Shown in pieces: positions 1 through 61,299 of a stretch of 64,000 bases of DNA. Position numbers and translations under genes: made by a program. How positions within the stretch are numbered: the first letter of the stretch is position 1; each line of letters begins with the position of its first letter. Below the pieces are notes generated by a model. It worked only from the letters and a program-made list of their open reading frames with translations. It searched no databases and was not told the origin of the DNA. The DNA is from an uncultured virus (IMG/VR IMGVR_UViG_3300037458_000449) (taxonomy: Duplodnaviria; Heunggongvirae; Uroviricota; Caudoviricetes): IMG/VR virus record IMGVR_UViG_3300037458_000449; one strand, 5' to 3'.

Positions 1-126
1 CGGCGAGTGCCTGATCCGCACCGCGACCACCCAGGGGATCGTCTACATCACGTTCACCCCGCTCGAGGGGGCTACCGAGGTCGTGCAGTCGTTCATGCCG
101 GCCAAGATGCTCAACGAGATCATGGA
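1..126. repeat. 126-bp exact direct repeat of 63831..63956 (circular overlap / assembly branch point)
   Basis: Base-by-base identity from cggcgagtgc to catgga; the copies diverge at base 127 (g) vs 63957 (a). Confidence 0.97.
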
Positions 127-148
127 GCAGTTTCGCCGTGGGGTTTAA
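2..148 (+). CDS. terL: 3' end of terminase large subunit N-terminal (ATPase) gene, HNH-containing allele (partial)
   Basis: Same frame as 63202..63981; reads GECLIRTATTQGIVYITFTPLEG...MEQFRRGV*. Confidence 0.85.
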   Translation, partial: GECLIRTATTQGIVYITFTPLEGATEVVQSFMPAKMLNEIMEQFRRGV

Positions 149-698
149 CCGGGTTCGTGACGGGATGCGACCCTGCATTGCGTGCGGCTTAACGCTCCCT
201 GTTGCCGAGTTTCCGGCTTATCCATACATCACGCGGCAGGGAAAGCCGAGCGTGCGCTATGACTCGCGCTGCCGCGCTTGCTCCCGTGAACGAGTCCGCT
301 GTAGGCGGGCAGACCCATCCAAGAGGGAAAAGGATCGTGTCGCTTCGATGGAATGGAAGCGGGCCAATCGTGACCGGCTGGCATCTCACCAAAAGACGAA
401 ACGAGCCACCGATCCGTTGTTCAGGCCAGCAAAGGCTGCCTATCAGCGTGCTCGCAAAGCCAGGATGCGCTCCGGCTTGGGGCGCGGACGCAACGACCCC
501 GAGATTCTGTCGATCTATGCCAATGCCAAGGCCATGGAGGCCAAGTTAGCCGCCTGCGTCGAGTGCGACGACCCGCTGGAAATGGCTATGCATGTCGATC
601 ACATCGTTCCGCTCTCAAGAGGCGGCCGACACGTTCCGTCGAATCTTCGGATCGTCAGCGCTCGCGAGAATCTGCGGAAAGGGGCGCGTCATGCCTGA
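138..698 (+). CDS. HNH homing endonuclease with N-terminal CxxC zinc motifs
   Basis: HVDHIVPLSRGGRHVPSNLRIVSARENLRKG HNH motif; overlaps both terL halves; absent from the allele at the window end. Confidence 0.9.
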   Translation: MGFNRVRDGMRPCIACGLTLPVAEFPAYPYITRQGKPSVRYDSRCRACSRERVRCRRADPSKREKDRVASMEWKRANRDRLASHQKTKRATDPLFRPAKAAYQRARKARMRSGLGRGRNDPEILSIYANAKAMEAKLAACVECDDPLEMAMHVDHIVPLSRGGRHVPSNLRIVSARENLRKGARHA

Positions 699-1449
699 GA
701 TCAATCCATCAAAGTATCTGGTGCTTGCTGGCTGGAATGACTGCCCGCACCTGGGCGAGCAGGACAAGATCGAACTGCGCCGGGCGTTCGCCGCGCGCCC
801 CCACGAACTCAAGGCCCGCGAAATGGGCATCCCCGTGCTGGGCAGCGGTGCCGTGTTCCCGGTGAACGAGGACGACATCCTGATCGACCCGATCCCGATT
901 CCCGACAACTGGCCGCAGATCGGCGGCATGGACTTCGGCTGGGATCACCCGTTTGCCGTCGCCCGCCTCGCGTGGAACCGCGACATCGACTGCCTGTACG
1001 TCATCGCCGACTTCCGCCAGTCGCAGATGACGCCCGTGATGGCGAAGGTCGCCCTGCACACCTGGGACAAGTGGCTGCCCTATGCATGGCCCCACGATGG
1101 CCTGCAGCACGACAAGGGCAGCGGCGAGCAGCTGGCCGAGCAGTACGGGGCCGCCGGGTTCGACATGCTGCCGGAGCGCGCCACGTTCCTCGACGGGTCC
1201 AACGGGCTCGAGGCGGGCATCAGCGAAATGCTCGACCGCATGATGACCGGCCGCTGGAAGGTCTTTTCGACGTGCGCGCTGTGGCTTGAGGAATTTCGCC
1301 TTTACCACCGCAAAGAGGGCCTGATCCAGAAGATCCGCGACGACGTCATCAGCGCCAGTCGGTATGGACTAATGATGAGGAGATATGCGCGGTGCAGGCC
1401 TACGAGAAAGCTCGCCGTCAAAGTGAAACCAAATTGGAGAGTGTCGTAA
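691..1449 (+). CDS. terL: Terminase large subunit C-terminal part (RNase H-like nuclease domain), P22 gp2-like
   Basis: ATG at 691 after AAAGGGG; motifs GMDFGWDHP, AWPHDG, EEFRLYHR, DDVISASRY resemble P22 gp2. Confidence 0.9.
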   Translation: MPEINPSKYLVLAGWNDCPHLGEQDKIELRRAFAARPHELKAREMGIPVLGSGAVFPVNEDDILIDPIPIPDNWPQIGGMDFGWDHPFAVARLAWNRDIDCLYVIADFRQSQMTPVMAKVALHTWDKWLPYAWPHDGLQHDKGSGEQLAEQYGAAGFDMLPERATFLDGSNGLEAGISEMLDRMMTGRWKVFSTCALWLEEFRLYHRKEGLIQKIRDDVISASRYGLMMRRYARCRPTRKLAVKVKPNWRVS

Positions 1450-1880
1450 TGGTGACTCTGGAAAGGGCTCGCGAGCTTTTCGCGCTCGATGCTGCCGGTA
1501 TTTTGCGATGGCGCGTGAACCGTAAGGGCGGCGTGAAGGCCGGCGAGCCTGTGGGCTGCGACAACGGGCGCGGCTACCTGCGTACCTCAGTCGATGGCCG
1601 CCAGGTGCTCGTCCACCGGCTGATTTGGCTCATGACTCATGACGAATGGCCCGCCAGCGAACTCGATCACATCGACCGGAACACGCAGAACAACCGCCCA
1701 AGCAACCTGCGGCTCGCGAATCGTCGCATCAACCTATCGAATCGCCGTCCGCTGGGCGAATCCGGTGCCGTGGGCGTCAGCCGTAACGGCAATGGATGGC
1801 AGGCGAGGCGCTTTCACCGTTACCTCGGCACGTTCCGCACGATCGAGGAAGCCGCTGAAGCGGCAAGGAGGGTCGCATGA
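1449..1880 (+). CDS. HNH homing endonuclease (HNH_3 type, AP2-like C-terminus)
   Basis: VHRLIW...LDHIDRNTQNNRPSNLR; YLGTFRTIEEAAEA; TAATG coupling to terL. Confidence 0.88.
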   Translation: MVTLERARELFALDAAGILRWRVNRKGGVKAGEPVGCDNGRGYLRTSVDGRQVLVHRLIWLMTHDEWPASELDHIDRNTQNNRPSNLRLANRRINLSNRRPLGESGAVGVSRNGNGWQARRFHRYLGTFRTIEEAAEAARRVA

Positions 1881-2089
1881 CGAATCCCCACGGCGTTCCG
1901 CACGCCCATAACTCGACGCCTTACCCGACCCGGCCGCGCTGGATGCTCGTCTACCGGCTGCCCGGCGACCCCGATCCGCACCAGCGGGCCTACGACGTGC
2001 TGCGCGAGGCCGAGGCCCGCAGCCGTCTCGCGGCCGAAGTGCCGGACGCCTACTCGATCTCGGCCACGTTCAACGAAGTCCCACTCTAG
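1877..2089 (+). CDS. Hypothetical protein
   Basis: AGGAGG RBS, ATGA overlap, genome-typical codon use. Confidence 0.6.
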   Translation: MTNPHGVPHAHNSTPYPTRPRWMLVYRLPGDPDPHQRAYDVLREAEARSRLAAEVPDAYSISATFNEVPL

Positions 2090-2099
2090 GAGCACCCAC

Positions 2100-2534
2100 A
2101 TGGGCATTACCGTCGGCGGCGACACCGCTTGGAAGGTCTACAGCCGCGGTCCGATCGCCGCTGCGTTCCATTGGATCAACGGCGAGCCCGCCATGGTCCT
2201 GTTTCCGACCAAGGGCCGCATGATGCTGAACGGCTGCATGCCCTATGCCCTGCCCCTGTCGCGAGCCCATGAGCTCGTCAAGGACGGCACCGACGGCAGC
2301 GTGGTCGATTCGGCGATCCTGTGGGACCGCGCGACGACGGCAACGCGCGTCATGGGGTTCGGCACCGACGCCCAGGTTGCCATGAAGGTCGCCGACGTCA
2401 TCTTGAACGGCCTCGATGATCTCTGCGACATGCCGCCGGAGCCCGAAGTGCTGGCGGCCAAGCGCGAGCCCGCTCCAACCGGAGAACTTGAGGTTAGGGT
2501 TGCCGGCGAAACGGTCTTCCAGGGTGAGGCATAG
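2100..2534 (+). CDS. Hypothetical protein between terminase and portal
   Basis: AGGAG RBS; high GC3. Confidence 0.75.
   Translation: MGITVGGDTAWKVYSRGPIAAAFHWINGEPAMVLFPTKGRMMLNGCMPYALPLSRAHELVKDGTDGSVVDSAILWDRATTATRVMGFGTDAQVAMKVADVILNGLDDLCDMPPEPEVLAAKREPAPTGELEVRVAGETVFQGEA
2471..2500 (+). promoter_or_regulatory. Putative late promoter CGCTCCAAC-N15-TAGGGT
   Basis: One of six copies with identical spacing; upstream of portal. Confidence 0.65.
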
Positions 2535-2537
2535 CCG

Positions 2538-5015
2538 GTGGACTCCCTTCGCGTCGTACACACGATGACCGGCAACGTGCCGGAGGTCGAAGATCGCCCG
2601 GAAACCGCCGATCGTGAAGACGCCGCGCTGACTGCGAAGTTCTCCAAGCTGCGATCGTGGCTCGAGCATGAGCGGGATCGGCAGGCTGAAAACCGCGCCG
2701 AAATGGCGATCGACGCCGATTACTACGACGGCCTGCAATGGTCCGAGGAAGACGCCCGCGAGATCGAGGCGCGCGGCCAGGCACCGCTCGTTTTCAACGA
2801 GGTCAAGGTGTCGATCGACTGGATCCTCGGTGCGGAGAAGCGCAACCGGGTCGATTGGCGCGTCCTGCCACGCGAGGCGAGCGACAGCGAAGGCGCGACG
2901 ATCCGCTCCAAGGTGCTCAAGTACCTCTCCGACGTCAATCGCACCCCGTTCACGCGCTCCCAGGCCTTCGCCGAGGCGGCCATCAGCGGCCTCAGCTGGC
3001 TGGAAGACTCGCTTTCGATGGACGCGACCGACGACGTGCTCTATTCGGGCCATGAGTCGTGGCGCAACGTCCTGCACGACAGCTACCACAAGCGGCCCGA
3101 CGGCAAGGACATGCGCTACCTGTTCCGGTGGCGCTACCTCGACCTCGACGTAGCCCAAGCCCTCTGGCCGAAGCACTCCGCGGCCCTTGAGCGCATGGCG
3201 ATGGGCGCCGACCAGCTGACGGCAGACGCCGACGACGAGCTCTGGTACCTCGGGGCGAACCTGCGCGACCCGCAGACGCACCGCGCGAGCGCGACCCGCA
3301 GCCTGTCGATGACCGGATCGAGCGTCGATAACGACCGCAGGCGCGTGAAAGTCTACGAGGGCTGGTATCGCGAGCCCGAGGAAGCCAAGGTGCTCTTTGG
3401 CGGCGCCTACCATGGCGACATTTACAACGAACAGCTGCCGGCGCACCAGAAAGCGGTGCAAAGCGGCAGCTGCGACGCGGTCAGCGCGATCGTGCTGCGC
3501 GTCCGCCTGGCGTTCATGACCGATGCGGAACTGCTCGAGGACTGCGAGACGCCTTTCGCGCACAACCAGTTCCCGCTGACGCCCCTGTATTGCTTCCGCC
3601 GCGGTCGCGACGGCATGCCCTACGGCCACGTCCGGCCGATGCGCGACCCGCAGATGGACATGAACAAGCGCATGTCGAAATCGCTGTTCCTGCTCTCCGT
3701 CAACCAGCTGATTGTCGAAGAAGGCACGTTCTCGACCGAAAAGGACGGCTACACGCTGCAGGACGCGCTCGACAACGCCAGCAACCCGCAGGGCTATTTC
3801 GTCCTGAAGCGCGGCGACGCCAAGTTCGAGATCCGCCGCGACTTCGCCGAGATCCGCGGCCACTCCGAGATCCTGGCCCTCGACCGTCAATTCCTGCAGT
3901 CCGCCTCGGGCGTCACCGACGAACTGCTCGGCCGCCGCACCAACGCGACCTCGGGCACGGCGATCACGGCCCGGCAGGAGCAGGGGCAGATCGCGACGGC
4001 CGGGATCTTCGACAACTACCGGCTCGCAATCAGCGTGAGCGGCCAGAAATCGCTGTCGAACGTCGAAAAGTTCTACTCGATGCCGAAGGTCATCCGCCTC
4101 ACCGAGACACAGGTAGGCGAGGCGCAGCCGAAAATCGACTGGGTCAACATCAACCAGCCCGAACTGCAGCCCGACGGCTCCGTGAAGTTCCTCAACGACA
4201 TCACTCAGTCACACGCTGATTTCGTGGTGGACGAGCAGGACTACCGCGCCACGATGCGCCAGGCGATGTTTGAGCAGCTGCTCGAAATGCTCAAGATCGT
4301 CGCCCCGGTCGCGCCGGCGATCGCCATTGGCCTGCTCGACATCGTCGTAGACGCCAACGACTTCCCCGGCAAGGAAGAAATGATCCAGCGCATCCGGCAG
4401 CTGATCGCCGAGGCGCGCGGCGAGGCCAAGACGCCCGAGCAGAAGGCCGAGGAAGCCGAGGCCGCGATGCTGCAGAAGCACGCCTTCGCCGCGAAGATCG
4501 CCGTGGACGAGGCCAAGGCCGACAAGACCGACGCCGAGGCCGACCAGATCCGCGCCATGCTCGATGCTGGCATGGTCGCCGTGGACCTCGAGCGCACCCC
4601 GCAAGGCGAGGCCCCGGCCGGCGGCAGCAAATCAATGGCCCCGGCGGAAGGATCAGCGCAGCCAAGCGGACCCCCCGCCGCCCGCGGCGCCCCGCCGCCT
4701 GGGGCCGCCCCCGATCCGATGGCGCGCGAAGGGCAGGCAGCGACCCTCGATGCCATGGCCGCGATGCTCGAGCAGGGGCAGCAGTTGCAGGAGTTCATCC
4801 GCCAGCAGGGCGCGATGGCAATGCAGCAGAACGCCCAGCTTCGCTCCGAGCTCGCGCAGTCCATGCAGCAGATCGCCGCCGCCATGCAGCAGTTCGCCGC
4901 CATGGCAGGCCAGCCCGGCCGCCAGCTGCAGCCCGTCGGCCCGCGCAGCAAAGTCATTCGCATCACCGACCCCGAGGGGCGGCTGATCGAAGCAACCGTT
5001 GAGTCCAACCAGTAG
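2538..5015 (+). CDS. Portal protein (P22-like)
   Basis: DYYDGLQW...RGQAPLVFN, PYGHVRPMRDPQ...NKRMSK, SGTAITARQEQG; position after terL. Confidence 0.9.
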   Translation: MDSLRVVHTMTGNVPEVEDRPETADREDAALTAKFSKLRSWLEHERDRQAENRAEMAIDADYYDGLQWSEEDAREIEARGQAPLVFNEVKVSIDWILGAEKRNRVDWRVLPREASDSEGATIRSKVLKYLSDVNRTPFTRSQAFAEAAISGLSWLEDSLSMDATDDVLYSGHESWRNVLHDSYHKRPDGKDMRYLFRWRYLDLDVAQALWPKHSAALERMAMGADQLTADADDELWYLGANLRDPQTHRASATRSLSMTGSSVDNDRRRVKVYEGWYREPEEAKVLFGGAYHGDIYNEQLPAHQKAVQSGSCDAVSAIVLRVRLAFMTDAELLEDCETPFAHNQFPLTPLYCFRRGRDGMPYGHVRPMRDPQMDMNKRMSKSLFLLSVNQLIVEEGTFSTEKDGYTLQDALDNASNPQGYFVLKRGDAKFEIRRDFAEIRGHSEILALDRQFLQSASGVTDELLGRRTNATSGTAITARQEQGQIATAGIFDNYRLAISVSGQKSLSNVEKFYSMPKVIRLTETQVGEAQPKIDWVNINQPELQPDGSVKFLNDITQSHADFVVDEQDYRATMRQAMFEQLLEMLKIVAPVAPAIAIGLLDIVVDANDFPGKEEMIQRIRQLIAEARGEAKTPEQKAEEAEAAMLQKHAFAAKIAVDEAKADKTDAEADQIRAMLDAGMVAVDLERTPQGEAPAGGSKSMAPAEGSAQPSGPPAARGAPPPGAAPDPMAREGQAATLDAMAAMLEQGQQLQEFIRQQGAMAMQQNAQLRSELAQSMQQIAAAMQQFAAMAGQPGRQLQPVGPRSKVIRITDPEGRLIEATVESNQ

Positions 5016-5027
5016 GAGATTCCGCCA

Positions 5028-5549
5028 ATGTTCGCATCCATCCTGAACCGCGCCCGCGCCCTTGCCCTCGTCGCGCTGGTTGCGTTTACCGCCCTCGCGC
5101 CGCAGGCCTCGCAGGCCCAGGCGTTCAGCGATTACGTCGAAAACAAGATCGTGGACCTTCTGGTTCGCGGTCAGACCTTCACCCCGCCCGCCACGATCTA
5201 CGTCGGCCTGTCCACGACGGCGTGCAGCGACAACTCGTTCGGCACGGAAGTCTCTGGCAACAACTACTCGCGCGCTTCGGTTACGGCGTCGCTGGCGAAC
5301 TTCGCCGGCACGCAGTCGTCGGGCAGCACGACGGCCTCAAGCGGCACGGGCGGCCAGACCAGCAACAACGGTGCGGTGAACTTCGCGACCCCGTCGGGGA
5401 CGTGGGGCAACGTGACGCATTGGTTCCTGGCTGACGCCGTCAGCGCCGGCAACCTGTTGATCTGCGACGACCTGACGGTGCCGAAGACGATCAATAGCGG
5501 CGACACCGTCTCGTTCGCGATCGGCGCCCTGACCGTCACCGTGCAGTAA
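5028..5549 (+). CDS. Virion/fibre-associated protein with signal-peptide-like N-terminus
   Basis: FSDYVENK...YVGLST...EVSGNNYSR...WGNVTH...KTINSGDTVSF pattern seen in phage fibre-base proteins; hydrophobic leader ending ASQA. Confidence 0.7.
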   Translation: MFASILNRARALALVALVAFTALAPQASQAQAFSDYVENKIVDLLVRGQTFTPPATIYVGLSTTACSDNSFGTEVSGNNYSRASVTASLANFAGTQSSGSTTASSGTGGQTSNNGAVNFATPSGTWGNVTHWFLADAVSAGNLLICDDLTVPKTINSGDTVSFAIGALTVTVQ

Positions 5550-5552
5550 GCA

Positions 5553-5780
5553 ATGCAGGTCGATGTCTCCGAGGCTGGATGGCTCGAGCTCTGGCGTGGC
5601 GCGACCCTCATATCGCGTCATCGCCAAGAGCGCGAGGCATGGACCAGCGCCCTGCGGCACGCCAACACGGCGGGCCCCGGAGATTATGAGCTTCGGCGCG
5701 GGATCATCCGCATCCGCGTGACGGCGTCGGCCGTCGCACAGTCAGCGGGGGAGATCGACGCCACCTTGGGGCTGCCATGA
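5553..5780 (+). CDS. Hypothetical protein
   Basis: Fills the operon; ATGA overlap with the next gene. Confidence 0.55.
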   Translation: MQVDVSEAGWLELWRGATLISRHRQEREAWTSALRHANTAGPGDYELRRGIIRIRVTASAVAQSAGEIDATLGLP

Positions 5781-8524
5781 GCGGCCCGGCCTGGTTCCTG
5801 CGGCTCCGCGACACCGCTCCAAATTGGACCGAGCGTTATGCAGCGATCGAAGCAGCCCTTACCGAGGGCCTGCTCGACAGCGCGACACTCGGCGAATACC
5901 TTGCAGAAGGAACGCCAACCGCCCGCGCTCAAGCGGTCCTCGATGCGCTTGTCGATCCCGTTACAGTCCGTGTCTACGACGGCGACGGCACGATCATGGG
6001 CCAGGGCACCATGCGAACGCCGTGGGCCACGACGGCAGGCGGTGTCATCACTCTCGGCGAGGTCACGCAGTTCGTCGTTACGCAGAGCGGCACGCCGGAT
6101 CCGGCCAGCTGGTATCTGCGCTTTGAGTCAGGAACGCGATGGGTACGCGGCAGCTTCGGCCTCGTTGGCAGCCTGGCCGCCTGCACTTGGTCGCTTCCGA
6201 CATGGGAAGCCGGTCAGAACGGTACGATCGGCACGGTCACGATCGGCGTGCCGTCGGGTTCCGCGCCGTCACTCGTCGGCGCAGCCAGCGCCCTGACGTT
6301 CACGGAAGGCGTCGGCGGGACCTACAATTTCAGCGGCTTCGCAAGCGATCCAGACGGCGGCGCGATCGCTTATTCGCTTGTCGGCACGCCATACGTCGGC
6401 ATCAGCATCAATCCGACCAGCGGCGTCTTGAGTGTTGAGACGACAGCCTCCGCGGCTGTTCGCAACCTGATCGTGCGCGTCACCGACGCTGGCGGCTTGA
6501 GCTCGGACTGGCCGGTGACGGTCACGATTTCAAGCGTGTCACAGGTGAAGTGGCACCCAGGCCATTACGCAAGGACAAACCAGCAAACGACGCCCTCCGT
6601 CTATGCGGCGCGTCAGACCGAATACGCGACGACCGCGGGCTACAGCAATATCGTCGGGGTCGCTTTCGAGATCAAATGGGGCTGGCTTGAGCGGACAACG
6701 CAGGGAAGCTACGACCTGACCTACCTCGAGCGCGAGATTGCCTACATCGCCTCGCTTGGCAAGAAAGCCATCATCAACATCGGGCACCTCAATTTCAGCG
6801 GCAGCGTTCCCGCCGCGCCGCAGGGCACCGCTGAGACGCTGCAACGCTGTACGCCGGACTATGTGATCCAGAACGGTTGGGCTGGCAACCAGAACGGATA
6901 CGCAGGCTGGGGCGCAAGACTGGACATTGCCGGGTGCATGGATCGGTACATCGCGCTGATCCAGCACCTCGGAGCGGCTTACAACGGCGACCCCCGAGTA
7001 GCTGCAGTCACGATCGGCGAGACATCAAGCAATCTCACCGGGTACAACACCAGCAATGGCTTGGCGCAATGGCTGAGGGTGCCGCAGTTGGCGCGAGCGG
7101 CATGGCCGACGACACCGTTTTTCATCGCCAACAACTACCTCAACAGTCGGGCGGACACAAAGACGCTGACTGACCGCATGGTGCTGCACGGCATCGGGAT
7201 GAACGGGCCGGACATTTACACCTACGACAGCCCGGACAACGAGTCATGGGGCGCGTCGTGCATCCGTGGACGTGGCGGGGACTTTGGCACGACTGACTCG
7301 CGGGCCGTCGTCGGGCAAATGTTTGAGATGCAAGTCATCCGTGGGACATCCAGAACGAAGTCTGAGATCAACAACCTCGCGAACAACGAGCGCAAAAACA
7401 ACTTCACGGTCTGGACGATATACAACGGGTTTGATCCGCCCGAATACGGGCCTCCCTATGCGCCGTGCCCTGAGTTCCGCTGGGAATCAGCGACGGGTGT
7501 GCGGCAGTACATCAACAACTCTGCGAATGCGGTCACGAATACTACCCTGCCTAGTGCGTGGGCCGCTCCGCCACCGTCGGCCGGCATCGTGATGCACAAC
7601 ACGACCTGGGAAACCGACCCGACTTCTGCCGACGTGGCTCCCGCTGGTTGGTCACTATCGAACACGGGCGGCACGGGCGACACGCGCTCGTTCCAGACGA
7701 CTACGCCGCGCACCGGCACGAAGTCGATGCGCTTCACCCTGACGCGTAACTCATCGGCGGATTGGCGCAACGAATACTCATCTGGCGTCGGTGACACCGT
7801 CCCGTTCTGCACATCGGCGGTAGTCCCGCAGCCGATCGAGCAATGGGTCGGCTATTCGATGCGGCTGGTGAGTCCGTACCCAACGGATACGACGCACAGC
7901 GAGGTCATCGGTCAATGGCACAACGGCAACACCGTGCAGGGAACGTGGGCCGGCGGGATATCCCGCTGGGACAGCTCCCCTGTGCTGGCGCTGTGGACGT
8001 GGACGAACGGCAACCTCCGGTTGATCGGACGCTGGTGCGACCTGATCCCGGCGAACAGCAGCCGGCCGTCAATGGGTTCCGAGTATTACGGTGCCGGGTA
8101 CGAATGGCGCTGCACCATCGGCGCGCTGTCCGATTACGCGGGCATCTGGTCTGACTGGGTGTGGCGCGTCGTGTGGGACTGGCGGCAGCGGGGGGCGGCG
8201 CAGAACCCGCTTATTCAGTACCCGTCGAACTGGATGGATGCATCCAACAGCGGCGGCACGGGCCTCGTCCAGCTATGGACGAAGCGGGCTGGAGAATCTG
8301 TTTACACGCAGAGGCTTAACTACGTCGGTCCGGTTGGATCGAACGACTACCAGTCAGCGCCCCTTCTGCAAGGCGCGATCCCGTACTACAAATTCGGCAT
8401 CTACAAGCGCGGCTGGGAGATCGGCGCCAGCAACGTCACGACTCGGCACATCGAGTACGACAACATGAAGATCATTCGCAACGGCGGCTCGTTCAACGAT
8501 GTTGCGCCGGGAGGGAATCCGTAA
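5777..8524 (+). CDS. Multidomain glycan-active protein: Ig/cadherin-like + putative TIM-barrel glycoside hydrolase + polysaccharide-lyase-like C-terminus
   Basis: ASDPDGGAIAYSL...VRVTDAGG (Ig-like); KWHPGHY, WGWLE, IGETS, GPD (GH-like); IGQWH, WSDWVWRVVW, YYKFGIYK, IEYDN (lyase-like jelly roll). Confidence 0.65.
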   Translation: MSGPAWFLRLRDTAPNWTERYAAIEAALTEGLLDSATLGEYLAEGTPTARAQAVLDALVDPVTVRVYDGDGTIMGQGTMRTPWATTAGGVITLGEVTQFVVTQSGTPDPASWYLRFESGTRWVRGSFGLVGSLAACTWSLPTWEAGQNGTIGTVTIGVPSGSAPSLVGAASALTFTEGVGGTYNFSGFASDPDGGAIAYSLVGTPYVGISINPTSGVLSVETTASAAVRNLIVRVTDAGGLSSDWPVTVTISSVSQVKWHPGHYARTNQQTTPSVYAARQTEYATTAGYSNIVGVAFEIKWGWLERTTQGSYDLTYLEREIAYIASLGKKAIINIGHLNFSGSVPAAPQGTAETLQRCTPDYVIQNGWAGNQNGYAGWGARLDIAGCMDRYIALIQHLGAAYNGDPRVAAVTIGETSSNLTGYNTSNGLAQWLRVPQLARAAWPTTPFFIANNYLNSRADTKTLTDRMVLHGIGMNGPDIYTYDSPDNESWGASCIRGRGGDFGTTDSRAVVGQMFEMQVIRGTSRTKSEINNLANNERKNNFTVWTIYNGFDPPEYGPPYAPCPEFRWESATGVRQYINNSANAVTNTTLPSAWAAPPPSAGIVMHNTTWETDPTSADVAPAGWSLSNTGGTGDTRSFQTTTPRTGTKSMRFTLTRNSSADWRNEYSSGVGDTVPFCTSAVVPQPIEQWVGYSMRLVSPYPTDTTHSEVIGQWHNGNTVQGTWAGGISRWDSSPVLALWTWTNGNLRLIGRWCDLIPANSSRPSMGSEYYGAGYEWRCTIGALSDYAGIWSDWVWRVVWDWRQRGAAQNPLIQYPSNWMDASNSGGTGLVQLWTKRAGESVYTQRLNYVGPVGSNDYQSAPLLQGAIPYYKFGIYKRGWEIGASNVTTRHIEYDNMKIIRNGGSFNDVAPGGNP

Positions 8525-12178: not shown

Positions 12179-14374
12179 ATGGCCTTCACGGTCGTTGCAA
12201 ATAGCGGCTCAGGGTTTGGGATCACGCTTGAAAGCGGGTCACCGCAGGCGCTTGAGGGCGCCGCGACGGCTGGCGCTACGGCGAGCGGTGCAATCAACGT
12301 CACGAAACCGCTGGCCGGCGACGCGATTGGCGCTGCCGCCGCATCTGGCGATCTGACAGCTGGCGGTCCGGTTCACGCATGGTTCCCGCGGCTGACGGGC
12401 AGCGCCGAGTCCTGGCAGCCGCGTAACCAGACCACCGAGTACCACCTACTCGCCGGATCCGCGACGGCCGGGGCCACGGCATCCGGCGATCTGACGGCAA
12501 CTGCCGGCGGCACGGCGCAGGAGCTCGAGGGCGCCGCCCTGACCTCGGCGCAAGCCGACGCTGCGCTGGCGGTTGCGAAGGTGCTGGCAGGAGCCGCGGC
12601 CGCCTCTGCACAGGCATCGGGGGCCGCCTCAGTCGTGAAGCTGCTCACGGGAGCCGCAGCGGCTTCCGCGCAGGCATCCGGCGCCCTGACGGTCGCCAAG
12701 CCGCTTGCCGGTCAGGCAATCGCGGGCGCATTGGCCTCGGCCGGGATCACGCTCGGCAAGCCGATCGCCGGGGCAGCCATCGCCGGGGCCGCTGCGAGCG
12801 GTGCGCTGTCCATCACTAAGCCGATCGCCGGGGCCGCACAGGCAGGCGCGACGGCCTCTGGCGCGATTTCTCACACGGTCACGCTGACGGGTGCCGCGGT
12901 ATCGGCGGCCAGCGCCAGCGGGGCAATCGCAGTCAGTAAGGGGCTTGCCGGCGCCGCGCTCGCTGGGGCCACGGCCAACGGTGCGCTGACGCTGGCGGTC
13001 AGTCTGAGCGGCGCGGCAGTCGCGCAGGCATTGGCATCGGCCGACCTTTCAACGGCTGGCGTCGCGAACCTTGAGGGCAGCGCGATCGGCGGCGGATCCG
13101 CCTCGGCGGCGCTGAACCTCAACGTCAACCTCTCCGGCAGCGCGCTTGCTGCCGCGCTGGCGTCTGGCGCGCTGGATACCGGCACCCTGCTCTCGGGCGC
13201 CGCGGTTGCCGGCGGCCAGGCCTCGGCCGCGCTCGTCGTCTCAAAGCTGCTCGCTGGACTCGCCAATGCGAGCTCGGCGGCCTCGGCAAACCTCTCGCTG
13301 TCGGTGCCGTTGAGCGGCGCGGCGATCGCCTCGGCTCAGGCGTCCGCCCCGATCACGGTCGTCCTGACGCTGAGTGGCGCTGCGATTAGCGGATCTGCGG
13401 CAAGCGGCCAGCTGAACATCCAAGTCGCGCTTGCCGGCCAGGCGGTCGCCGGCGCGACGGCACAGGCCTCGCTCGACATCGTCGGGACCGTTGACCTCGA
13501 CGGTGCTGCGGTTGCCTCGGCCAGCGCCAGCGGCGCGCTGAATGTCGCCGTCGTGCTGCAGGGCGCTGCGGTTGCTGGCGCAACAGCATCGGCAGGCCTC
13601 GAAACGGGTGTAATCGACGGCGAGTTCTATCTGCCGCCAAGCAGCCTGCTCGGCTCTGCACTCGGCCAAGCGGCGGGCGCGGCTGACCTGTCGATTGCCA
13701 AGCCGATCGCGGGTGACGCCGAGGCAAGTGCGCAGGCCGCGGCCGAGCTCGCGCTGGCAAAGCTGATTGCGGGAGTTGCCAGCGGCGGCGCGGTCGCGGC
13801 CGGCGACTTGAGCGTATCGGTGAACCTCGCGGGCGCCGCGATTGCCGGGGCCGCGGCCGGCGGGCAAATCCTGCTCGCCGTTGCGCTCAACGGTGCCGCG
13901 CTGGCGGGTGCCATGGCGTCCGGCGCGCTCACACTCACCGGCCAGGTCGATCTAGAGGGTACTGCAGCCGGCTCGGCCTCGGCGTCCGGCACGCTGAGCC
14001 TCGCGGTTCGTTTGTCGGGCGCGGCGATCGGCAGCGGCAATGCCTCGGCCACGGTCAACATTAGCAAACTGCTCTCGGGCGCCGCGATCGCTGCAACGCT
14101 GGCCGGCGGCGAGCTTACGGTGCTGTCCTTCACGCTCGACGGCGACGCGATCGCCGGGGCGGTAGCCGACGCGGCCCTGTCCGTCGTGGGCGAAACGGGC
14201 GATCTGCCGCCTGAGTATCACGGCGGCGGCGGCAAGCTGGACGACGGCGACGAGCTCTTGACGCGGGTGCGCGACTACTGGGAGCGCCGCGAGGCCCGCC
14301 AGGCTGAGCGCAAGCGGATGATCGACATGGTGCGGTTGATCGAAATGATCGACTCGATAGACGATGCGGCGTGA
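12179..14374 (+). CDS. Ala/Gly-rich ~20-aa tandem repeat (fibre-like) protein
   Basis: Repeats such as LAGAAAASAQASGAASVVKL and IAGAAIAGAAASGALSITKP. Confidence 0.75.
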   Translation: MAFTVVANSGSGFGITLESGSPQALEGAATAGATASGAINVTKPLAGDAIGAAAASGDLTAGGPVHAWFPRLTGSAESWQPRNQTTEYHLLAGSATAGATASGDLTATAGGTAQELEGAALTSAQADAALAVAKVLAGAAAASAQASGAASVVKLLTGAAAASAQASGALTVAKPLAGQAIAGALASAGITLGKPIAGAAIAGAAASGALSITKPIAGAAQAGATASGAISHTVTLTGAAVSAASASGAIAVSKGLAGAALAGATANGALTLAVSLSGAAVAQALASADLSTAGVANLEGSAIGGGSASAALNLNVNLSGSALAAALASGALDTGTLLSGAAVAGGQASAALVVSKLLAGLANASSAASANLSLSVPLSGAAIASAQASAPITVVLTLSGAAISGSAASGQLNIQVALAGQAVAGATAQASLDIVGTVDLDGAAVASASASGALNVAVVLQGAAVAGATASAGLETGVIDGEFYLPPSSLLGSALGQAAGAADLSIAKPIAGDAEASAQAAAELALAKLIAGVASGGAVAAGDLSVSVNLAGAAIAGAAAGGQILLAVALNGAALAGAMASGALTLTGQVDLEGTAAGSASASGTLSLAVRLSGAAIGSGNASATVNISKLLSGAAIAATLAGGELTVLSFTLDGDAIAGAVADAALSVVGETGDLPPEYHGGGGKLDDGDELLTRVRDYWERREARQAERKRMIDMVRLIEMIDSIDDAA

Positions 14375-15526: not shown

Positions 15527-15556
15527 CGCTCCAACCGATTTTGATTGCGGCAGAGT
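15527..15556 (+). promoter_or_regulatory. Putative late promoter CGCTCCAAC-N15-CAGAGT
   Basis: Intergenic, upstream of the GIY-YIG and capsid genes. Confidence 0.65.
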
Positions 15557-15592
15557 TGCCACCGTAGCCCGAAAGGGCGAAGTGGAGTGCCG

Positions 15593-16213
15593 ATGTTTGC
15601 CGTGTACGCGCTGCTCGACCCCCGTGCTTGCGATCTCCGATACATCGGAATGACGCAGGACGTAGGCGCGCGCGTCAAAAAGCACGTTCGCAACTGCACC
15701 CATTTCGACACGCCGCGCGACCAATGGATTCGGGAGTTGCGAGGCGCCGGACTTCAGCCTGATTGCATGGTCCTCGAAGAATTTGAGAATCGTGACGCTT
15801 GCGACGCTGGTGAGCGTTACTGGATCAGCAGGGCATCCAGTCGTGGCTTAGGCATCCTTAATCGCACGGCCGGCGGGCAACGTGGCGAACTGAGCGACGA
15901 GTCTAGGGAAAGGATCGGCGCCAAGAACCGCGGCCGGGTTCCATCGGCCGAAGCGCGCGCGAAGATGTCGGCGTCCGCGAAAGCACGCACGGGCCGCGTC
16001 GTCAGCGCAGAAACCCGCGCCAAGATTAGTGAGTCGAACAAGGGGAAAGGTCATAGCCTGGAATGGCGCGCGGCGCAGGCGGCGCTCATGGCGGGGCGGA
16101 AAGCGTCGCCGGCCACCAAGGCGAAAATGAGTTCATCGCAGCGCGGGAACCAAAACGCGCGGCGATCACCAACTGAGCGCAAGAGTGCTCCAAACATCAA
16201 CTTTGGAGACTGA
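15593..16213 (+). CDS. GIY-YIG homing endonuclease with NUMOD3 repeats
   Basis: VYALLDPR...RYIGMT, R..H, ERYWI, LN; SAEARAKMS and SAETRAKIS repeats; GGAG RBS before ATG 15593. Confidence 0.85.
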   Translation: MFAVYALLDPRACDLRYIGMTQDVGARVKKHVRNCTHFDTPRDQWIRELRGAGLQPDCMVLEEFENRDACDAGERYWISRASSRGLGILNRTAGGQRGELSDESRERIGAKNRGRVPSAEARAKMSASAKARTGRVVSAETRAKISESNKGKGHSLEWRAAQAALMAGRKASPATKAKMSSSQRGNQNARRSPTERKSAPNINFGD

Positions 16214-16215
16214 AA

Positions 16216-17358
16216 ATGGCTCAGACAATTGTGGGCTTGAATGATCCCAAGGCGGTAAAGAAGTATTCCGCCTTCCTCGCAGTCGATGTTGGCCGCAAGT
16301 CCTACTTCAACAAGAAGTTCATGGGCAAGGGCATCGAGGCGCAGACCCCCATCCAGATGCTCACGTCGCTGGAAAGCGACTCGGGCGAGCAGATCAGCTA
16401 CGACCTCGTCATGCAGCTTCGCATGCAGCCGGTCGAAGGTGACAACACGCTCGAGGGCAAGGAAGAAGACCTCAAGTTCTACACGGACAACGTCTACATC
16501 GACCAGGCGCGTGGCGGTGTGAACACGGGCGGCCGCATGACCCGCAAGCGCACGATCCACGATCTGCGCAAGGTCGCGCGGGCGCGTCAGTCCGAGTGGT
16601 GGGCGCGGATTTTCGATGAACTGTTCTTCCTGTACCTGTCCGGCGGCTTCCGCGACAGCGGCACGGGCGCGTCGATCTTCGCCAATGGCGACTACACCTA
16701 CCCGAGCGGCTACGCGGGCTTCGCGAACAACACGTTCGTCGCCCCGGATGCCGAGCACCGGGCCTTCGGTGGTGACGCCACGCTGTTCAGCAACATCGAC
16801 TCGGGCGACAAGCTCTCGCTGTCGGTCATCGACAAGCTGGTGGCGAAGGCCTGCACGCTGGGCGGCGGCACGTCGGGTATCCCGGCGATCGAGCCCATCA
16901 TGATCGACGGCGAGGAACACTACGTCATGGTGATGCACCCGTGGCAGGAGTACGACCTGCGCACGAACACCAGCACCGGGCAATGGCTCGACATCCAGAA
17001 GGCCGCGTCGGGCGCCGAGGGGCGCAGCAACCCGATCTTCAAGGGTGGCACCGGCATGTACAACAACGTCGTGCTGCACAAGCACCGCTCGGTTCTCCGT
17101 CGCACAGACGGCGGCGCCGGCTCGGTCGCCGTGGCTCGGGCGCTGTTCATGGGTCGGCAGGCGGCGGTGGTCGCGTTCGGTTCGCCGGGCACGGGCCTGC
17201 GCTTCGACTGGGCCGAGGAATCGCGTGACAACGGCAACCAGGCCGTCATCACGACGAGCTCGATCTTCGGCGTGAAGAAGACCGCCTTCACGATCGAGGG
17301 CGTGTCGCGGGACTTCGGCATCGTCGCCGTGGACACCGCGGCTGCGAACCCCGGCTAA
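16216..17358 (+). CDS. Major capsid protein, N4-gp56 family
   Basis: GDNTLEGKEEDL, IDQARGGV, RKRTIHDLR, YVMVMHPWQEYDLR, NPIFKG, GVKKT; strongly biased codons. Confidence 0.9.
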   Translation: MAQTIVGLNDPKAVKKYSAFLAVDVGRKSYFNKKFMGKGIEAQTPIQMLTSLESDSGEQISYDLVMQLRMQPVEGDNTLEGKEEDLKFYTDNVYIDQARGGVNTGGRMTRKRTIHDLRKVARARQSEWWARIFDELFFLYLSGGFRDSGTGASIFANGDYTYPSGYAGFANNTFVAPDAEHRAFGGDATLFSNIDSGDKLSLSVIDKLVAKACTLGGGTSGIPAIEPIMIDGEEHYVMVMHPWQEYDLRTNTSTGQWLDIQKAASGAEGRSNPIFKGGTGMYNNVVLHKHRSVLRRTDGGAGSVAVARALFMGRQAAVVAFGSPGTGLRFDWAEESRDNGNQAVITTSSIFGVKKTAFTIEGVSRDFGIVAVDTAAANPG

Positions 17359-29443: not shown

Positions 29444-32400
29444 ATGGCCCAAACGGTCGCTGAGTACCTTCGTTCGCGCGGCATCAACAACGACCAGGGC
29501 GGCGAAGGGCCGACAACGGGCGATACGCTCGATCGAATCCTGCAGCGCCGCGGCTCGACGCGACTGGCAGGCGTGGCCCGTTCGATCTACGGGCAGGAAT
29601 CCAGCTACGGCGCTGCCGATACGTCGCAGCCGAACTCGTCCGACGTCCGCGGCCCCATGCAGGTCAAAGACACGACGTTCGCGCAGATGCAGCGTGAGGG
29701 GCGCATCCCGGCCAACTATCGCTGGGACAACCCCGAGCACAACACCGAGGCCGGCGTCGCCTACATCGAAATGCTGGCCGAGAAGACCGGCGGCGACCCG
29801 CGCAAGATCGCGCAGGGCTACTACGGCGGCCCCGGCGCGATCGGTAAGGAATCCCGTCGCGACCCGCGCAACCCGAGCGCGCCGACCGTCGGCCAGTATG
29901 GCGACGAGGTCGTTTCCCGCATGGGCGTCACGGGCCCGGCACGCGCGACGGCCCCGAGCGGCGCAATGTCGCCGTGGCAGTACCTCGAGCAGCAGCGCAA
30001 CGCGAGCCGCGCCGCGCCGTCGGTCGATCTCGAGAAAGCCGTAGTCGAGGAACGGGCGCAGCAGACCGCGGAGCCAGGCGGCCCGGCGATGACGTGGGAT
30101 CAGGTCGTGCAGCATGAGGCCTGGCTCAAGGCCGACAGCGACACCCGCGAGCAGATCCGCGAGCGGTACTGGCAGGACGAGGTCGCGCCGCGCATCCCCG
30201 CCGACCAGCAGGCCGCGGCCCGCAAGCTGTTCGATCAGGACACAAACCCGAGCCTCGCGCGCCGCATCGGCGATGCAGGCCGGGCGATCGCCGGCGGCGC
30301 GATTCAGGGCGTCGGCATGACCGTCCGCGGCGCGGGCGAAATGATGCGCGAGGGCGCGCAGCCGATCGCCGCTGGCATTGCCGCCCTGGGCGGCCCCGAA
30401 ATCACCCCGATCAACCCGCTCGATGGGGCAGCAAACGCCATCGAGGGCTACAGCCAGGGCGTGCTCGACAGCCGCAGCCTCGCGAGCCAGATGGCGCAGC
30501 AGCAGTCCACGCCCGAGGGCGACGTCAGCGACCCGGCGACGTGGTCGATGGGTCAGGATCCGTCGCTGGGCGGCTACATCCAGCACGGCGCCGTCATCCT
30601 CGGCCAGTTCGCGCCGATCATTGCCAGCGTCGCGCTGACCAAGAACCTGCCGGTTGCCGGCCAGGTGGCGGTCGCCGGCGGCCTCGGTGGCGCGCAGGGC
30701 GGCGGTGCAGCGGCGCAGCAGGCCCGCGAGACGATCGAGGGCATGGACGAGGCCGAGCTCGCCAAGGAGTCGTCCTACTATCGCCAGCTGCGCGAACGCC
30801 TCGGGCATGAGCAGGCCAAGGCGATGACGGCGGCCGAGGCTGCCAAGTGGGCCTTCCGCATCACCCTGCCCGTCTCGGCGGCCGGCGGCGCCGCCACGGG
30901 CGCGATCCTCTCGCCAGCGGTTCGCCTGGGCGCGGGCCTCGTCGGCGGATCCTACGTCGGTAACATGGCGCTGCGCGGCACGGCGAGCGCCATCGAGGAA
31001 GGCCTGCAGGAAACCGGCGAAGGCATTGCGACCGAACAGGGCATCAACGTCGGCGCCGGCACCGAGCGCGACGTCATGGCGGGCAGCTTCCCGAACGCCG
31101 TCCTGGGCGCAATAGGAGGCGCTACTCCGGGCGCTGGCTCCGGCGCACTCGCAGCCCATGCCGAGCGCGCGCGCCAGGCAGCGGCCAACCTGCGCGGCCA
31201 GCCGACCGTTTCGCCGGCACCCACGAACCCGCAGACCGGACCCGCTACGCCGCCCCCGGCTGGCGGCCCGACACCGCCCCCGGCAGGCGGTGGTCCGCGT
31301 CCGGCTGGCCCGACGAGCCCCGAGGGCCCGATTCCGGCCGAGGAAGTGCTCGGCCCCGTGCTCGACGGCGGCCCGGCCGCCCCCGAACCCGCTCCGGCGA
31401 CCGCCCCCCCCTTGGCGCCGTCTCCTGTCGCTGCTACCAACGGACCAGCGCAGGAGGCGGCGCCTCTTTTGGAGGATGCCGAGCAAGGCGGCAGCCGTTA
31501 CAATAAGGGACATGAACAAGCGAACAGGCCTAACGCGGAAGTTCCCGGCCGAGTACCGAACGTATCGGTGGATGATCCGTCGGTGCCGGGATCAAAATCT
31601 GCGGATATACGCGGAGTACGGGGGCAGAGGGATCAAGGTCTGCCGGCGGTGGACGGAGAGCTTCGCCCACTTCCTGACAGATATGGGACCGCGTCCGGCG
31701 CCGCTGATGTCGCTGGACAGAATCGACCCGAACGGCCACTACGAGCCGGCGAATTGCCGGTGGGCGACCGCGCAGCAGCAAGCGGCGAACCGGAGGTTTT
31801 GCCGGATCGTGGAGTTTCGTGGTCAGCGGATGACCGTACAGGAGGCGGCGAGACTGGCGGGAGTGCCGCCGATGACATTCCGACAACGGGTGTTACGGCA
31901 GGGACTCGACCCGGAGCGAGCGGCGACGCTGGGCCGACTCCCTTATCGTCGGGACTCGAAATTCCTGACGCACAACGGGGTAACGATGGCCGTGCCGGAG
32001 TGGGCTCGCCACCTGGGAATCAGAGTGCGGACGCTTCGGGAGCGGATTCGCAGGGGGGCGCCCCTCGAGCGAGTATTACGACAGGGATTGATGCGGCGGC
32101 CCATGAAGCAGCTACATCCCCTCTGAATGATCGACCAGAACCGACGCAAGCTCAGAAAGAAGCGGGGAATTACAAGGTCGGAAGGGTCCGCGTTCAGGGC
32201 CTCGACATCAGCATCGAGAACCCCAAGGGCAGCGAGCGCAAAGGCGTCAGCAAGGACGGCAAGCCGTGGTCCACGGTCATGCCCGGCCACTACGGGTACA
32301 TCAAGGGCACGGTCGGCAAGGACAAAGACCACATCGACGTGACGCTGGGCGATGCGCCCGACGACACCTCGCGCCCGATCTTCGTGTTCAACCAAGCTGA

Positions 32401-57484: not shown

Positions 57485-57765
57485 GCAACTGTCCACGCTG
57501 CGGCGCCGCCAAGCATCGAGGCCGCTGCAAGAAGGCGGCCCCTGCCGTTGCTGTGGCGCCGCCCGTCATCACCCTGGCCCCAGTCGCCCTCGAGGTCCCG
57601 AGCGGCCTCGGGTTCCGCGCCTCGCTCGAGGACGGCCAGCTGCACATCGAGCAGGACCACCCCGACACCGACGGCACGATCTACACGCACAACCTCGTCC
57701 TCGCGCCGCATGAGGCCGCGCGGCTCGTTGACTGGATCGCCGACCAGGTCGGGACGCGAGCCTGA
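57481..57765 (+). CDS. Hypothetical protein
   Basis: GAGGA RBS; CPRC. Confidence 0.6.
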   Translation: MSNCPRCGAAKHRGRCKKAAPAVAVAPPVITLAPVALEVPSGLGFRASLEDGQLHIEQDHPDTDGTIYTHNLVLAPHEAARLVDWIADQVGTRA

Positions 57766-57768
57766 GCC

Positions 57769-58200
57769 ATGCGGCCCCTTCGACTGACCGGCATCGAGGC
57801 CAGCCGAACCACGCGCCGCAAGCCGGTCGATCTCGCGTCGAAGCTCGCCGAGCAACTGACCCTCGCCGGCTGGCGCACCTTCGTCCGTGAGTACCACTTC
57901 CACCCCGCTCGCCGCTGGCGGCTCGACATCGCGTTCCCCGACGTCAAGCTCGGCGTCGAGTGCGAAGGTGTCGGGCCCAAGGGCAAGCCCGGCCGCCACC
58001 AGCTGACCCAGCACCTACACGCGAACACCGAGAAGCACTCGGCCATCGCCGTCGCCGGCTGGCGCCTGATCCGCGTCACCGGCCGGCAGATCCAGTCCGG
58101 CCATGCCCTGCGCTGGGTCGAGGCTGCCCTGTCCGGCGAAATCGGCTACGTCTTCGATACGCCCGGCAACTGGGCCTCGCCCCGGAGGCGTCGTGCCTGA
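57769..58200 (+). CDS. DUF559/Vsr-like PD-(D/E)XK endonuclease
   Basis: EYHFHPARRWRLDIAFPDVKLGVECEG...GWRLIRVT. Confidence 0.8.
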   Translation: MRPLRLTGIEASRTTRRKPVDLASKLAEQLTLAGWRTFVREYHFHPARRWRLDIAFPDVKLGVECEGVGPKGKPGRHQLTQHLHANTEKHSAIAVAGWRLIRVTGRQIQSGHALRWVEAALSGEIGYVFDTPGNWASPRRRRA

Positions 58201-58513
58201 GCAGATCCAAGTCGCCCGCTTCCTCGTCGTGTTCACCAGCTACACCCAGCCCGGCGAATGGATCACCGCATCCCGCCTCGCGCAACGCATCCTGCCCATG
58301 GCCTCGAGCGAGTTCGCGAAGGAGGTCAGCCGCAAGCTGTCGAACCTCAACCGCTTCGGCCACCTCGAGCGCCGCCTGGCCCGCGATCGCCGCGAGCATG
58401 AATACGCCCGCCAGCCCGATCGCCCCGTCGTCCTGCCGGTCGAGCTCGCCTCGATGTTCCACTTCGGCGCCTACGCCGGCCTCGAAAGGCGCAAAGAGCC
58501 TATTGACCTTTAG
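58193..58513 (+). CDS. Putative winged-helix protein (candidate late-gene regulator)
   Basis: TASRLAQ...VSRKLSNLNRFGHLER; last gene of the rightward early operon; role inferred from position. Confidence 0.5.
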   Translation: MPEQIQVARFLVVFTSYTQPGEWITASRLAQRILPMASSEFAKEVSRKLSNLNRFGHLERRLARDRREHEYARQPDRPVVLPVELASMFHFGAYAGLERRKEPIDL

Positions 58514-58533
58514 GTAATGACCCGGTCTATAAT
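58503..58533 (+). promoter_or_regulatory. Sigma70-type promoter with long spacer
   Basis: TTGACC-N19-TATAAT upstream of the radC-like operon. Confidence 0.65.
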
Positions 58534-61297: not shown

Positions 61298-61299
61298 CC

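Follow-up and report, generated by a model that had tools for sequence, protein, structure and literature searches.

The 64,000-nucleotide (nt) stretch of viral DNA examined here (hereafter the window; IMG/VR record IMGVR_UViG_3300037458_000449, from an uncultured member of the Caudoviricetes) carries, one at each end, two alternative versions of the junction between terL-N and terL-C, the genes that encode the two halves of its large terminase. In one allele (HNH+) a putative HNH endonuclease gene lies between the halves; in the other (HNH-free) the halves overlap directly. Both alleles belong to a single phage population, a polymorphism confirmed in wetland metagenomes. A free-standing homing endonuclease gene with a co-converted flank is the best reading of this arrangement and, in our judgement, probably the correct one.

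Two alleles of the terminase junction coexist in one phage population

The first-pass annotation of this DNA had observed that positions 1-126 equal positions 63831-63956 and that the two copies then diverge. Sequence comparison bore this out: the copies are exact, divergence begins at 127/63957, and the repeat is listed as family D3. The left copy continues, as described, into the 186-amino acid (aa) HNH gene, in which Pfam recognises an HNH domain (PF01844), and then into the peptide MPEINPSKYLV at 691; the right copy leads directly to MPEINPSKYLV at 63968, and nine of these 11 codons indeed differ, every change falling on the third base. Because the right-hand allele is cut by the window end at 64000, its remainder was read from an HNH-free IMG/VR contig (L001, 6,371 bp) recovered in an exact-match scan. 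This contig is 100% identical to window positions 57749-64000 over 6,252 nt and supplies 119 further bases, the last 99 of which equal positions 744-842, divergence ceasing after terL-C codon 18. Since L001 rejoins the window at 744, the alleles differ solely in positions 127-743 (617 nt, HNH+) versus 63957-64020 (64 nt, HNH-free). An HNH+ contig whose name carries the same dataset prefix (L002) is 100% identical to positions 36-7446.

The 53-nt flank that opens terL-C contains 15 differences between the alleles, all in nucleotides 6-53 of the gene. They hit thirteen codons, 11 of which change at the wobble position only, and alter two residues (L12 and C18 in the HNH+ allele, M12 and V18 in the HNH-free one). 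The contrast between 15 differences in 53 nt, together with a diverged 22-nt terL-N tail, and 0 differences in the 6,252 nt upstream is far from chance.

The second copy of the first 126 bases is accounted for by the way in which the genome was assembled. The contig starts 126 bases ahead of the first allele difference, and the window's own HNH protein on record (P0006) comes from a 64,147-bp contig that ends 127 bases beyond the last difference (64020). This pattern, 126 bases before the first and 127 past the last difference, indicates a k=127 graph walk round a circle that leaves by the other branch, and it fits the earlier proposal that the 126-bp overlap reflects a k=127 assembly bubble. 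The phage genome in the window is a circle, 63,830 bp long in its HNH+ form and about 63,277 bp in its HNH-free form; the assembly went round it once and finished in the other arm of the bubble. The duplication of bases 1-126 has no other cause than this continuation of the assembly beyond its starting point (k-1 overlap). For annotation, this means that the "terminal repeat" of such contigs is an allele bubble of a circular genome and no true repeat. The phage is uncultured and podovirus-like, with a P22-type portal and an Sf6-type small terminase.

The occurrence of both alleles was assessed in Logan contigs of four wetland-metagenome runs, which hold sampled-word shares of 1.00 (X1), 0.99 (X2), 0.87 (X3) and 0.48 (X4) of the HNH+ stretch 1-1500; the contigs were compared with positions 4872-6371 of L001, and runs with small shares (X5-X12) were left out. 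In X1, a 5,101-nt left-flank contig (depth 20.7) stops at the first difference, the HNH-free branch is a 124-nt contig (depth 7.4) and the right flank (15,580 nt, depth 18) begins past the last difference; no contig of the HNH+ allele was placed directly in this comparison, and the word share of the HNH+ stretch in this run is 1.00. In X3, the left flank (depth 19.9) is followed by an HNH-free segment continuous with a 23,963-nt right contig (depth 15.4), and a 500-nt contig (depth 4.7) departs from the left flank, its loose end reading into the HNH allele. Depths are additive in this run, 15.4 for the HNH-free path and 4.7 for the HNH+ branch against 19.9 for the left flank. In X2, a 5,194-nt contig (depth 11.8) passes straight through the HNH-free segment and is followed by a right contig of 16,264 nt (depth 10.4). 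The junction contigs of X4 are too thin and fragmentary to judge.

No branch interrupts the flank contigs, which extend for 5.1 kb to the left of the junction and for 15.6-24 kb to its right. The HNH-free share is ~0.36 in X1 and ~0.77 in X3, and the HNH-free allele is the main path in X2; this variation of allele shares among runs gives no indication of a direction of spread. Together, the shared unbranched flanks and the additive depths show that both alleles coexist on the same flanks. The first-pass proposal of a population polymorphism, as opposed to a chimera, is upheld by the X1-X3 contigs, which join the HNH-free branch to the flanks that carry this genome.

The HNH gene and its flank differ in composition from the rest of the genome

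The putative endonuclease gene starts 11 nt ahead of the terL-N stop and ends inside terL-C codons 2-3; in the HNH+ allele terL-N, the HNH gene and terL-C therefore all overlap and are translationally coupled on both sides. The PF01844 match scores 31.9 bits against a cutoff of 21.4 (E 1.4e-7), and the best PHROG is phrog_1035, "endonuclease VII" (E 9.7e-26). Residues H152, D154, H155, N169 and N178 (HVDH..N..N) and the Cys columns are invariant in 17 aligned family members. The AlphaFold model (mean predicted local distance difference test score 87.4) has an N-terminal part of four short strands with a CxxC..CxxC arrangement, then a long helical region and, at residues 151-184 near the C-terminus, the strand-strand-helix core of an HNH (beta-beta-alpha-metal) nuclease with its catalytic residues intact. 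A Foldseek search of the whole model against the PDB, N-terminal module included, returned no match at E <= 0.001; the weaker matches are solely HNH cores (Cas9, Cascade-HNH, a Geobacter nicking HNH and colicins). Likewise, a sequence search of solved structures gave a single match, to the Cas9 HNH domain (E 0.0094). The 17 family members end in ..HA, ..YA, ..CA, ..CPR or ..CPK, which in our reading would fit stop codons embedded in the terL-C start.

G+C content at third codon positions (GC3) is 0.916 in terL-N, 0.872 in the rest of terL-C and 0.880 in the portal gene, and 0.667 in the HNH gene (Fisher P 5e-7 versus the rest of terL-C). Over terL-C codons 2-18, nine of 17 codons end in G or C in the HNH+ allele (0.53; binomial P 6e-4 at backbone GC3), compared with 15 of 17 in the HNH-free allele. 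The HNH gene and the 53-nt flank thus share a composition unlike that of the genome, and the HNH-free flank looks native, a contrast that favours gain of the HNH gene and its flank from a donor of lower GC3.

The flank encodes the most conserved peptide of TerL-C, MPEIxPSKYLVxAGWxDVPH, within the first 20 residues in relatives with 30-77% TerL-C identity. At the V position of DVPH, the 30 listed rows have C in the two HNH+ copies of the window's phage, A in the relative L003 and V in the other 27. At the DNA level, HNH-free relatives match the HNH-free allele at 41-50 of 60 positions, and the HNH+ tract reaches at most 47 of 60 with any relative. Homing endonucleases usually target a conserved coding motif of an essential gene, and the conserved start of terL-C may be such a target in this phage.

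Related HNH genes occupy the same site in other phages

Homology searches revealed related putative HNH genes at this site in no fewer than four further diverged lineages. Between their terL halves, L012/L013 carry an open reading frame (ORF) of 184 aa and L070/L086 one of 174 aa, whose products share 55% and 46% identity, respectively, with the HNH protein of the window; L087/L088 carry a 33% relative immediately 5' of a terL-C homologue; and in L106, a prophage in a Rhizobiaceae metagenome-assembled genome, a 51% relative lies directly ahead of terL-C, with 3.3 kb of other genes separating it from terL-N. The nearest HNH proteins on record have 81%, 72% and 70% identity, P0001-P0005 spanning 63-81%. 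On a quick terL-N tree with Shimodaira-Hasegawa-like approximate likelihood ratio (SH-aLRT) support, HNH carriers are distributed over three separate subclades, and in each of these they have sister lineages without the gene. The comparison of terL loci covers the best 80 of 261 confirmed IMG/VR terL-N relatives, grouped in 63 clusters at 95% identity; in this set, where the window's phage is represented by its HNH-free contigs L001/L007 and the HNH+ contigs L002/L005 are left out, the HNH family occurs only in the clusters that hold L012/L013 and L070/L086. Near-identical HNH-free partners of L012 and L070 were sought for a comparison of alleles, and none exceeded ~75% nucleotide identity.

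In two of these lineages the HNH gene opens with a copy of the gene that follows it. The L106 ORF begins with 13 codons that copy its own terL-C start (12 of 13 residues match), the DNA being recoded at most wobble positions past the first 16 nt, and the first nine codons of the L070 ORF copy the terL-C start of that genome. In a codon-shuffle control, the score of the start copy was reached in 0 of 1000 shuffles for L106 and 3 of 1000 for L070. The insertion point in both lies just 5' of the W codon in AGW, a position inside the recoded tract of the window. Whether the HNH gene of the window might likewise open with a decayed version of the terL-C start was also considered; this idea is unsupported, as 631 of 1000 shuffles reach its score.

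A separate observation concerns L070 (positions 2157-2215, the same in L086), where an insertion of 4 or 7 nt within AGWDDVPH disrupts the reading frame of terL-C, at the codon position of the last change in the window tract (V18C); the insertion may be an error of assembly, the mark of a pseudogene or a scar left by repair of a cut.

Homing and its alternatives

The junction combines presence or absence of an HNH gene at one site in otherwise near-identical genomes, a position outside any intron or intein (by Rfam, Pfam and the ORF overlaps on both sides) and a flank with the pattern of co-conversion, namely 15 differences in 53 nt of foreign GC3 followed by identity. The foreign GC3, the tight boundaries of the presumed conversion and the repeated occurrence of this HNH family at one site across diverged phages lend indirect support to the homing mechanism put forward in the first-pass annotation. 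Under such a mechanism, in a co-infected cell the HNH enzyme would nick or cut the HNH-free allele in or near the conserved terL-C start (MPEIxPSKYLVxAGWxDVPH), and repair would then use the HNH+ genome as template and so transfer the HNH gene. Along with it would go the adjoining 53 nt of the donor, which, being synonymous but differently coded, would leave the converted genome uncuttable. We infer cleavage, the position of the cut, immunity and the direction of gain from the arrangement of the alleles.

Several points weigh against this interpretation. The case for homing is one of pattern, and an HNH gene inside the terminase operon could serve packaging instead. Direction, gain versus loss, is unproven, and a GC-rich HNH-free relative could have supplied the HNH-free tract. 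Of the 14 codons that encode the same residue and are able to vary, 11 have a wobble change, for which a rough estimate gives P ~0.1; as this extent is about that of a saturated, diverged donor flank, recoding for immunity becomes superfluous as an explanation, and an immunising role of the recoded flank is best described as plausible. No donor of the HNH cassette was identified in IMG/VR, one metagenome scan or a genome scan: the HNH protein matched only the same phage and one 36-residue C-terminal segment in IMG/VR, and its relatives reached at most 41% identity in the metagenome scan and 51% in the genome scan. Furthermore, the duplicated-start signature of L106 and L070 was not detectable in the window (631 of 1000 shuffles reach the score) or in L012 (466 of 1000). 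As for coexistence, contig depth is one mean figure per contig, all runs appear to stem from a single campaign, and the DNA of the window may itself derive from X1 and X2, so that the runs are of limited independence.

The strongest competitor to homing is ordinary homologous recombination, by which a short junction segment would have been exchanged with a related phage without site-specific cutting and the HNH gene would be a passive passenger or an inactive relic. Phage genomes are mosaic in nature, the wobble positions have diverged just as far as they would in a diverged homologue, and unrelated inserts occupy the terL junction in 19 of the 63 relative clusters, which indicates that the site tolerates cargo generally. 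The exchange, however, keeps close to the HNH gene, reaching ~22 nt on its left side and 53 nt on its right side, and more than 20 kb of the background contain no further variant. The catalytic and Cys columns are invariant across the 17 family members, a sign that the gene is not decaying, and the same family recurs at this site in diverged phages. On balance we regard mosaicism as unlikely, if still the alternative to be taken most seriously.

The HNH protein might instead be a packaging accessory nuclease of the kind of HK97 gp74 or the GVE2-like "HrdP", which have been reported beside terminase genes, aiding the split terminase, the polymorphism then reflecting gain or loss of a helper. 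Its position in the terminase operon, its translational coupling on both sides and the general nature of the PF01844 family would suit this role, and an HNH gene linked to packaging lies between terL and the portal gene in all 89 Skunavirus genomes (PMC12724721). The gene is dispensable, however, HNH-free and otherwise identical genomes being the majority in X3 and X2. Packaging-helper HNH nucleases are known from cos phages, and the P22-type portal and Sf6-type small terminase of the window point to headful packaging. Moreover, the HNH family is rare in its group, present only in the L012/L013 and L070/L086 clusters among the 63 rather than conserved in all members, and the search of solved structures gave only the Cas9 HNH domain (E 0.0094). 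A packaging role thus seems improbable, and more so than mosaicism.

Little credence can be given to the idea that the HNH gene resides in a self-splicing intron, or between the halves of a split intein, and that full-length TerL is restored. Terminase genes with HNH-bearing group I introns are known from Pectobacterium phage CB7 (PMC7344957), Lelliottia phage phD2B (PMC4246154) and ICP1 (PMC10448857). In the window, an Rfam E-value scan of positions 1-2600 found no ribozyme or intron family, the sole match being a chance miRNA (E 0.39). Nor is the empty allele continuous: it has no intervening DNA, and yet its halves are in different frames with overlapping stop and start, and at least three frame relations occur among relatives. 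Pfam found no intein domain in the terL halves, where Terminase_6N covers residues 68-242 of 259 and Terminase_6C residues 78-229 of 252; only ~17 residues follow the ATPase domain, and the first 20 residues of TerL-C correspond in alignments to the linker of relatives with an intact terL. The arrangement accordingly departs from the fractured gene with a split intein (Dassa et al. 2009, PMC2677866), in which the first half would end in intein-N and the second begin with intein-C. Finally, a mis-join of ends from two different phages, or another assembly error, with no alleles in one population, would leave contig ends that overlap by exactly k-1 and then diverge, as expected at a repeat, but has virtually no chance of being right given a separate IMG/VR contig that is 100% identical over 6,252 nt upstream and 99 nt downstream and flank contigs common to both alleles, with additive depths, across three runs.

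The large terminase is encoded by two genes with or without the HNH gene

The first-pass annotation had spoken of HNH-invaded and HNH-free alleles of the terL locus, a wording that suggests an interrupted gene and does not hold: terL consists of two overlapping, translationally coupled genes whichever allele is considered, the break lying in the linker that joins the ATPase domain to the nuclease domain, and the HNH gene therefore sits at a gene boundary and not within an ORF. In the HNH-free allele, terL-C opens at 63968 in another frame than terL-N, whose stop falls 14 nt inside it. Both domains of a T4-type (Terminase_6) large terminase are thus present, in separate ORFs and different frames, in place of a single polypeptide. 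The terL-N protein matches phrog_31467, a group of 261-residue proteins labelled "unknown function" (E 1.9e-83), a label worth noting for annotation. Among the best 20 rows for terL-C, 18 fall under a terminase or DNA-packaging annotation, one record (H51) is unannotated and another (H52) lists a hypothetical protein.

Judged from the sequences of its relatives, the two-gene terL is a trait of the family. In the 63 clusters, the halves are adjacent in different ORFs in 21 (commonly with an 8-nt overlap), 19 have an insert of 95-3,300 nt between them, 16 have one intact ORF and seven have no C half in the DNA examined; of the 56 clusters with both halves identified, 40 accordingly have a split terL. 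The halves of these relatives show at least three different frame relations, and on the quick tree the intact forms lie mostly near the base. Since the HNH-free allele and 21 clusters free of insert and HNH gene are also split, the split is independent of the present insert. By Pfam, the 26 insert ORFs comprise one HNH (L070), one GDSL lipase (L032), one sub-threshold regulator match and 23 without a family. Six GenBank phages were inspected: terL is intact in Xfas53, StenR_269, EBPR podovirus 1, RHph_N2 and CV-1-33, and split at another site in Xanthomonas phage DES1. A literature search for a split terminase turned up no report of such a two-gene large terminase.

Further observations were made at these loci. 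Cargo in the terL gap of relatives was recorded at L032 3257-5236, L033 5905-9025, L046 5781-8257, L024 5818-7119 and L106 640-3916, and includes a 445-aa GDSL lipase, 702-aa ORFs without a family in two lineages and several small ORFs. In DES1 (L102, 64.7 kb, cultured; positions 2309-4642), a 119-aa "terminase family protein", a 165-aa hypothetical protein and a 398-aa "large terminase" follow one another, the split lying at an early site. The ..RHA tail of terL-N in L003 was considered as a scar of HNH loss, an idea that was dropped because the overlapping start of terL-C dictates the final two residues of this tail.

We also raise, as a tentative conjecture that we would not bet on, that the large terminase works as two polypeptides with ATPase and nuclease unlinked, and that the split was made and kept open by a dedicated HNH family. 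Its members would have inserted in frame at AGW, borrowing the old terL-C start to drive their own translation and bringing a recoded replacement start, and after loss of the HNH gene the gap would have stayed as a landing site for cargo, such as the inserts in 19 clusters.

Neighbouring genes and other features of the window

A second free-standing HNH gene follows terL-C, so that the two HNH genes bracket it (Table 1). It matches phrog_99 (E 2.1e-47), and its ATG overlaps the terL-C stop. This gene was present in every copy of the phage seen and absent from the relative L003, which has 150 nt where the window has 783 and lacks both HNH genes. Its GC3 is 0.73, and that of the last ~60 terL-C codons (1261-1449) is 0.55-0.80; this stretch may be a second, fixed conversion tract. 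A gene with GIY-YIG and NUMOD3 domains (15545-16213, GC3 0.68) ends 3 nt 5' of the major capsid gene (16216-17358) and is likely another homing endonuclease gene beside an essential gene.

Table 1. Features of the terminase region at the two ends of the window
Position	Strand	Feature	Evidence
1-126	+	3' part of terL-N; exact second copy of 63831-63956	
127-148	+	HNH+ tail of terL-N (..EIMEQFRRGV), stop TAA 146-148; 22 nt, diverged from HNH-free ..EIMESFRNARN	
138-698	+	Putative free-standing HNH endonuclease gene, 186 aa; GTG start, stop TGA 696-698	
691-743	+	Recoded flank, terL-C codons 1-18 of the HNH+ allele; candidate co-conversion tract and candidate target region	
691-1449	+	terL-C, nuclease half, 252 aa	Pfam PF17289 Terminase_6C, E 2.6e-20
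1449-1880 (ORF 1392/1449-1880)	+	Second free-standing HNH gene, HNH_3 type	Pfam PF13392, E 1.8e-13
2538-5015		P22-type portal	Pfam, E 3.2e-142
62660-63205	+	Small terminase subunit, Sf6 type	Pfam PF20901, E 1.4e-23
63202-63981	+	terL-N, ATPase half, 259 aa, HNH-free tail, stop TAA 63979-63981	Pfam PF03237 Terminase_6N, E 1.3e-12
63957-64000	+	HNH-free junction allele, part within the window (44 divergent bases); full divergent segment 64 nt, to 64020	

Elsewhere in the window, two pairs of direct repeats (45024-45118/46229-46323, 95 nt, 91% identity; 46317-46480/47496-47659, 164 nt, 98%) lie in the early-gene region among ORFs without a Pfam match, the members of each pair being ~1.2 kb apart. 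A GC-rich 38-nt repeat occurs in eleven copies that are 71-79% alike, ten within 12251-14172 and the eleventh at 4587-4624; the ten lie inside a 731-aa ORF without a Pfam family (12179-14374) that probably encodes a repetitive structural protein. A 4,908-aa ORF (29444-44170) carries SLT transglycosylase, inorganic pyrophosphatase, Eco57I-type methylase and ResIII helicase domains, and a "Hom_end" homing-endonuclease match at its residues 4281-4338 may mark an intein.

Discussion

The junction described here is probably a homing-endonuclease case of an already known kind, to which the two-gene terminase and the junction-specific HNH family add interest. SegG, which Liu et al. reportedly described in 2003, is said to be a free-standing homing endonuclease of T4-type phages with co-conversion of flanking markers. 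SegE and mobE are free-standing enzymes of the same kind (PMC2790892, PMC2988022). As with SegG, SegE and mobE, the nuclease gene of the window lies between or beside essential genes, outside any intron or intein, it is present or absent between close relatives, and a short flank differs along with it. Unlike those enzymes, its HNH protein is of a different lineage with an N-terminal Cys-rich module, and its host phage is uncultured, GC-rich and from a wetland; its two alleles were recovered together from the same samples, on genomes that are otherwise identical, and the system is known from sequence.

In Aeromonas phage Aeh1, mobE interrupts nrdA, leaving a gene in pieces that is functional as two peptides (PMC7344957, PMC10448857). 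The window likewise has an HNH gene between separately translated halves of an essential gene, although its terL is split without the HNH gene too, and the cut falls between the ATPase and nuclease domains. ICP1 is among the phages in which islands of homing endonuclease genes bracket essential genes, terL included (Barth et al. 2023, PMC10448857). The window resembles them in that two HNH genes bracket terL-C, a GIY-YIG gene stands ahead of the capsid gene, the 4,908-aa ORF contains a homing-endonuclease domain match and the content of such genes varies, L003 being without both HNH genes. In ICP1, however, terL is spliced from exons separated by introns, whereas no intron was found in the window and the halves stay separate.

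An HNH gene between two terL reading frames is also found in CB7 (PMC7344957) and phD2B (PMC4246154). Unlike these group I introns, the window gave no ribozyme match and its empty allele has no continuous ORF. The position of the HNH gene in the terL-portal region recalls Skunavirus HrdP and GVE2-like HNH proteins (PMC12724721); the Skunavirus gene is there in all genomes of its group, whereas that of the window is polymorphic within a single population.

The value of the present case lies in the resolution of its alleles. Most of what is known about phage homing endonucleases comes from a small number of cultured groups. In the present case, both alleles occur in the same environmental samples on an otherwise identical 63-kb genome, and the converted segment is therefore defined to the base, 617 versus 64 nt. 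This allele pair is directly usable to map the target of the HNH enzyme and to ask whether the 53-nt synonymous tract suffices for immunity. The split-terminase context may matter more than the HNH gene itself: if it is true that the two halves cooperate without a covalent linker, this would bear on models of communication between the terminase motor and its nuclease.

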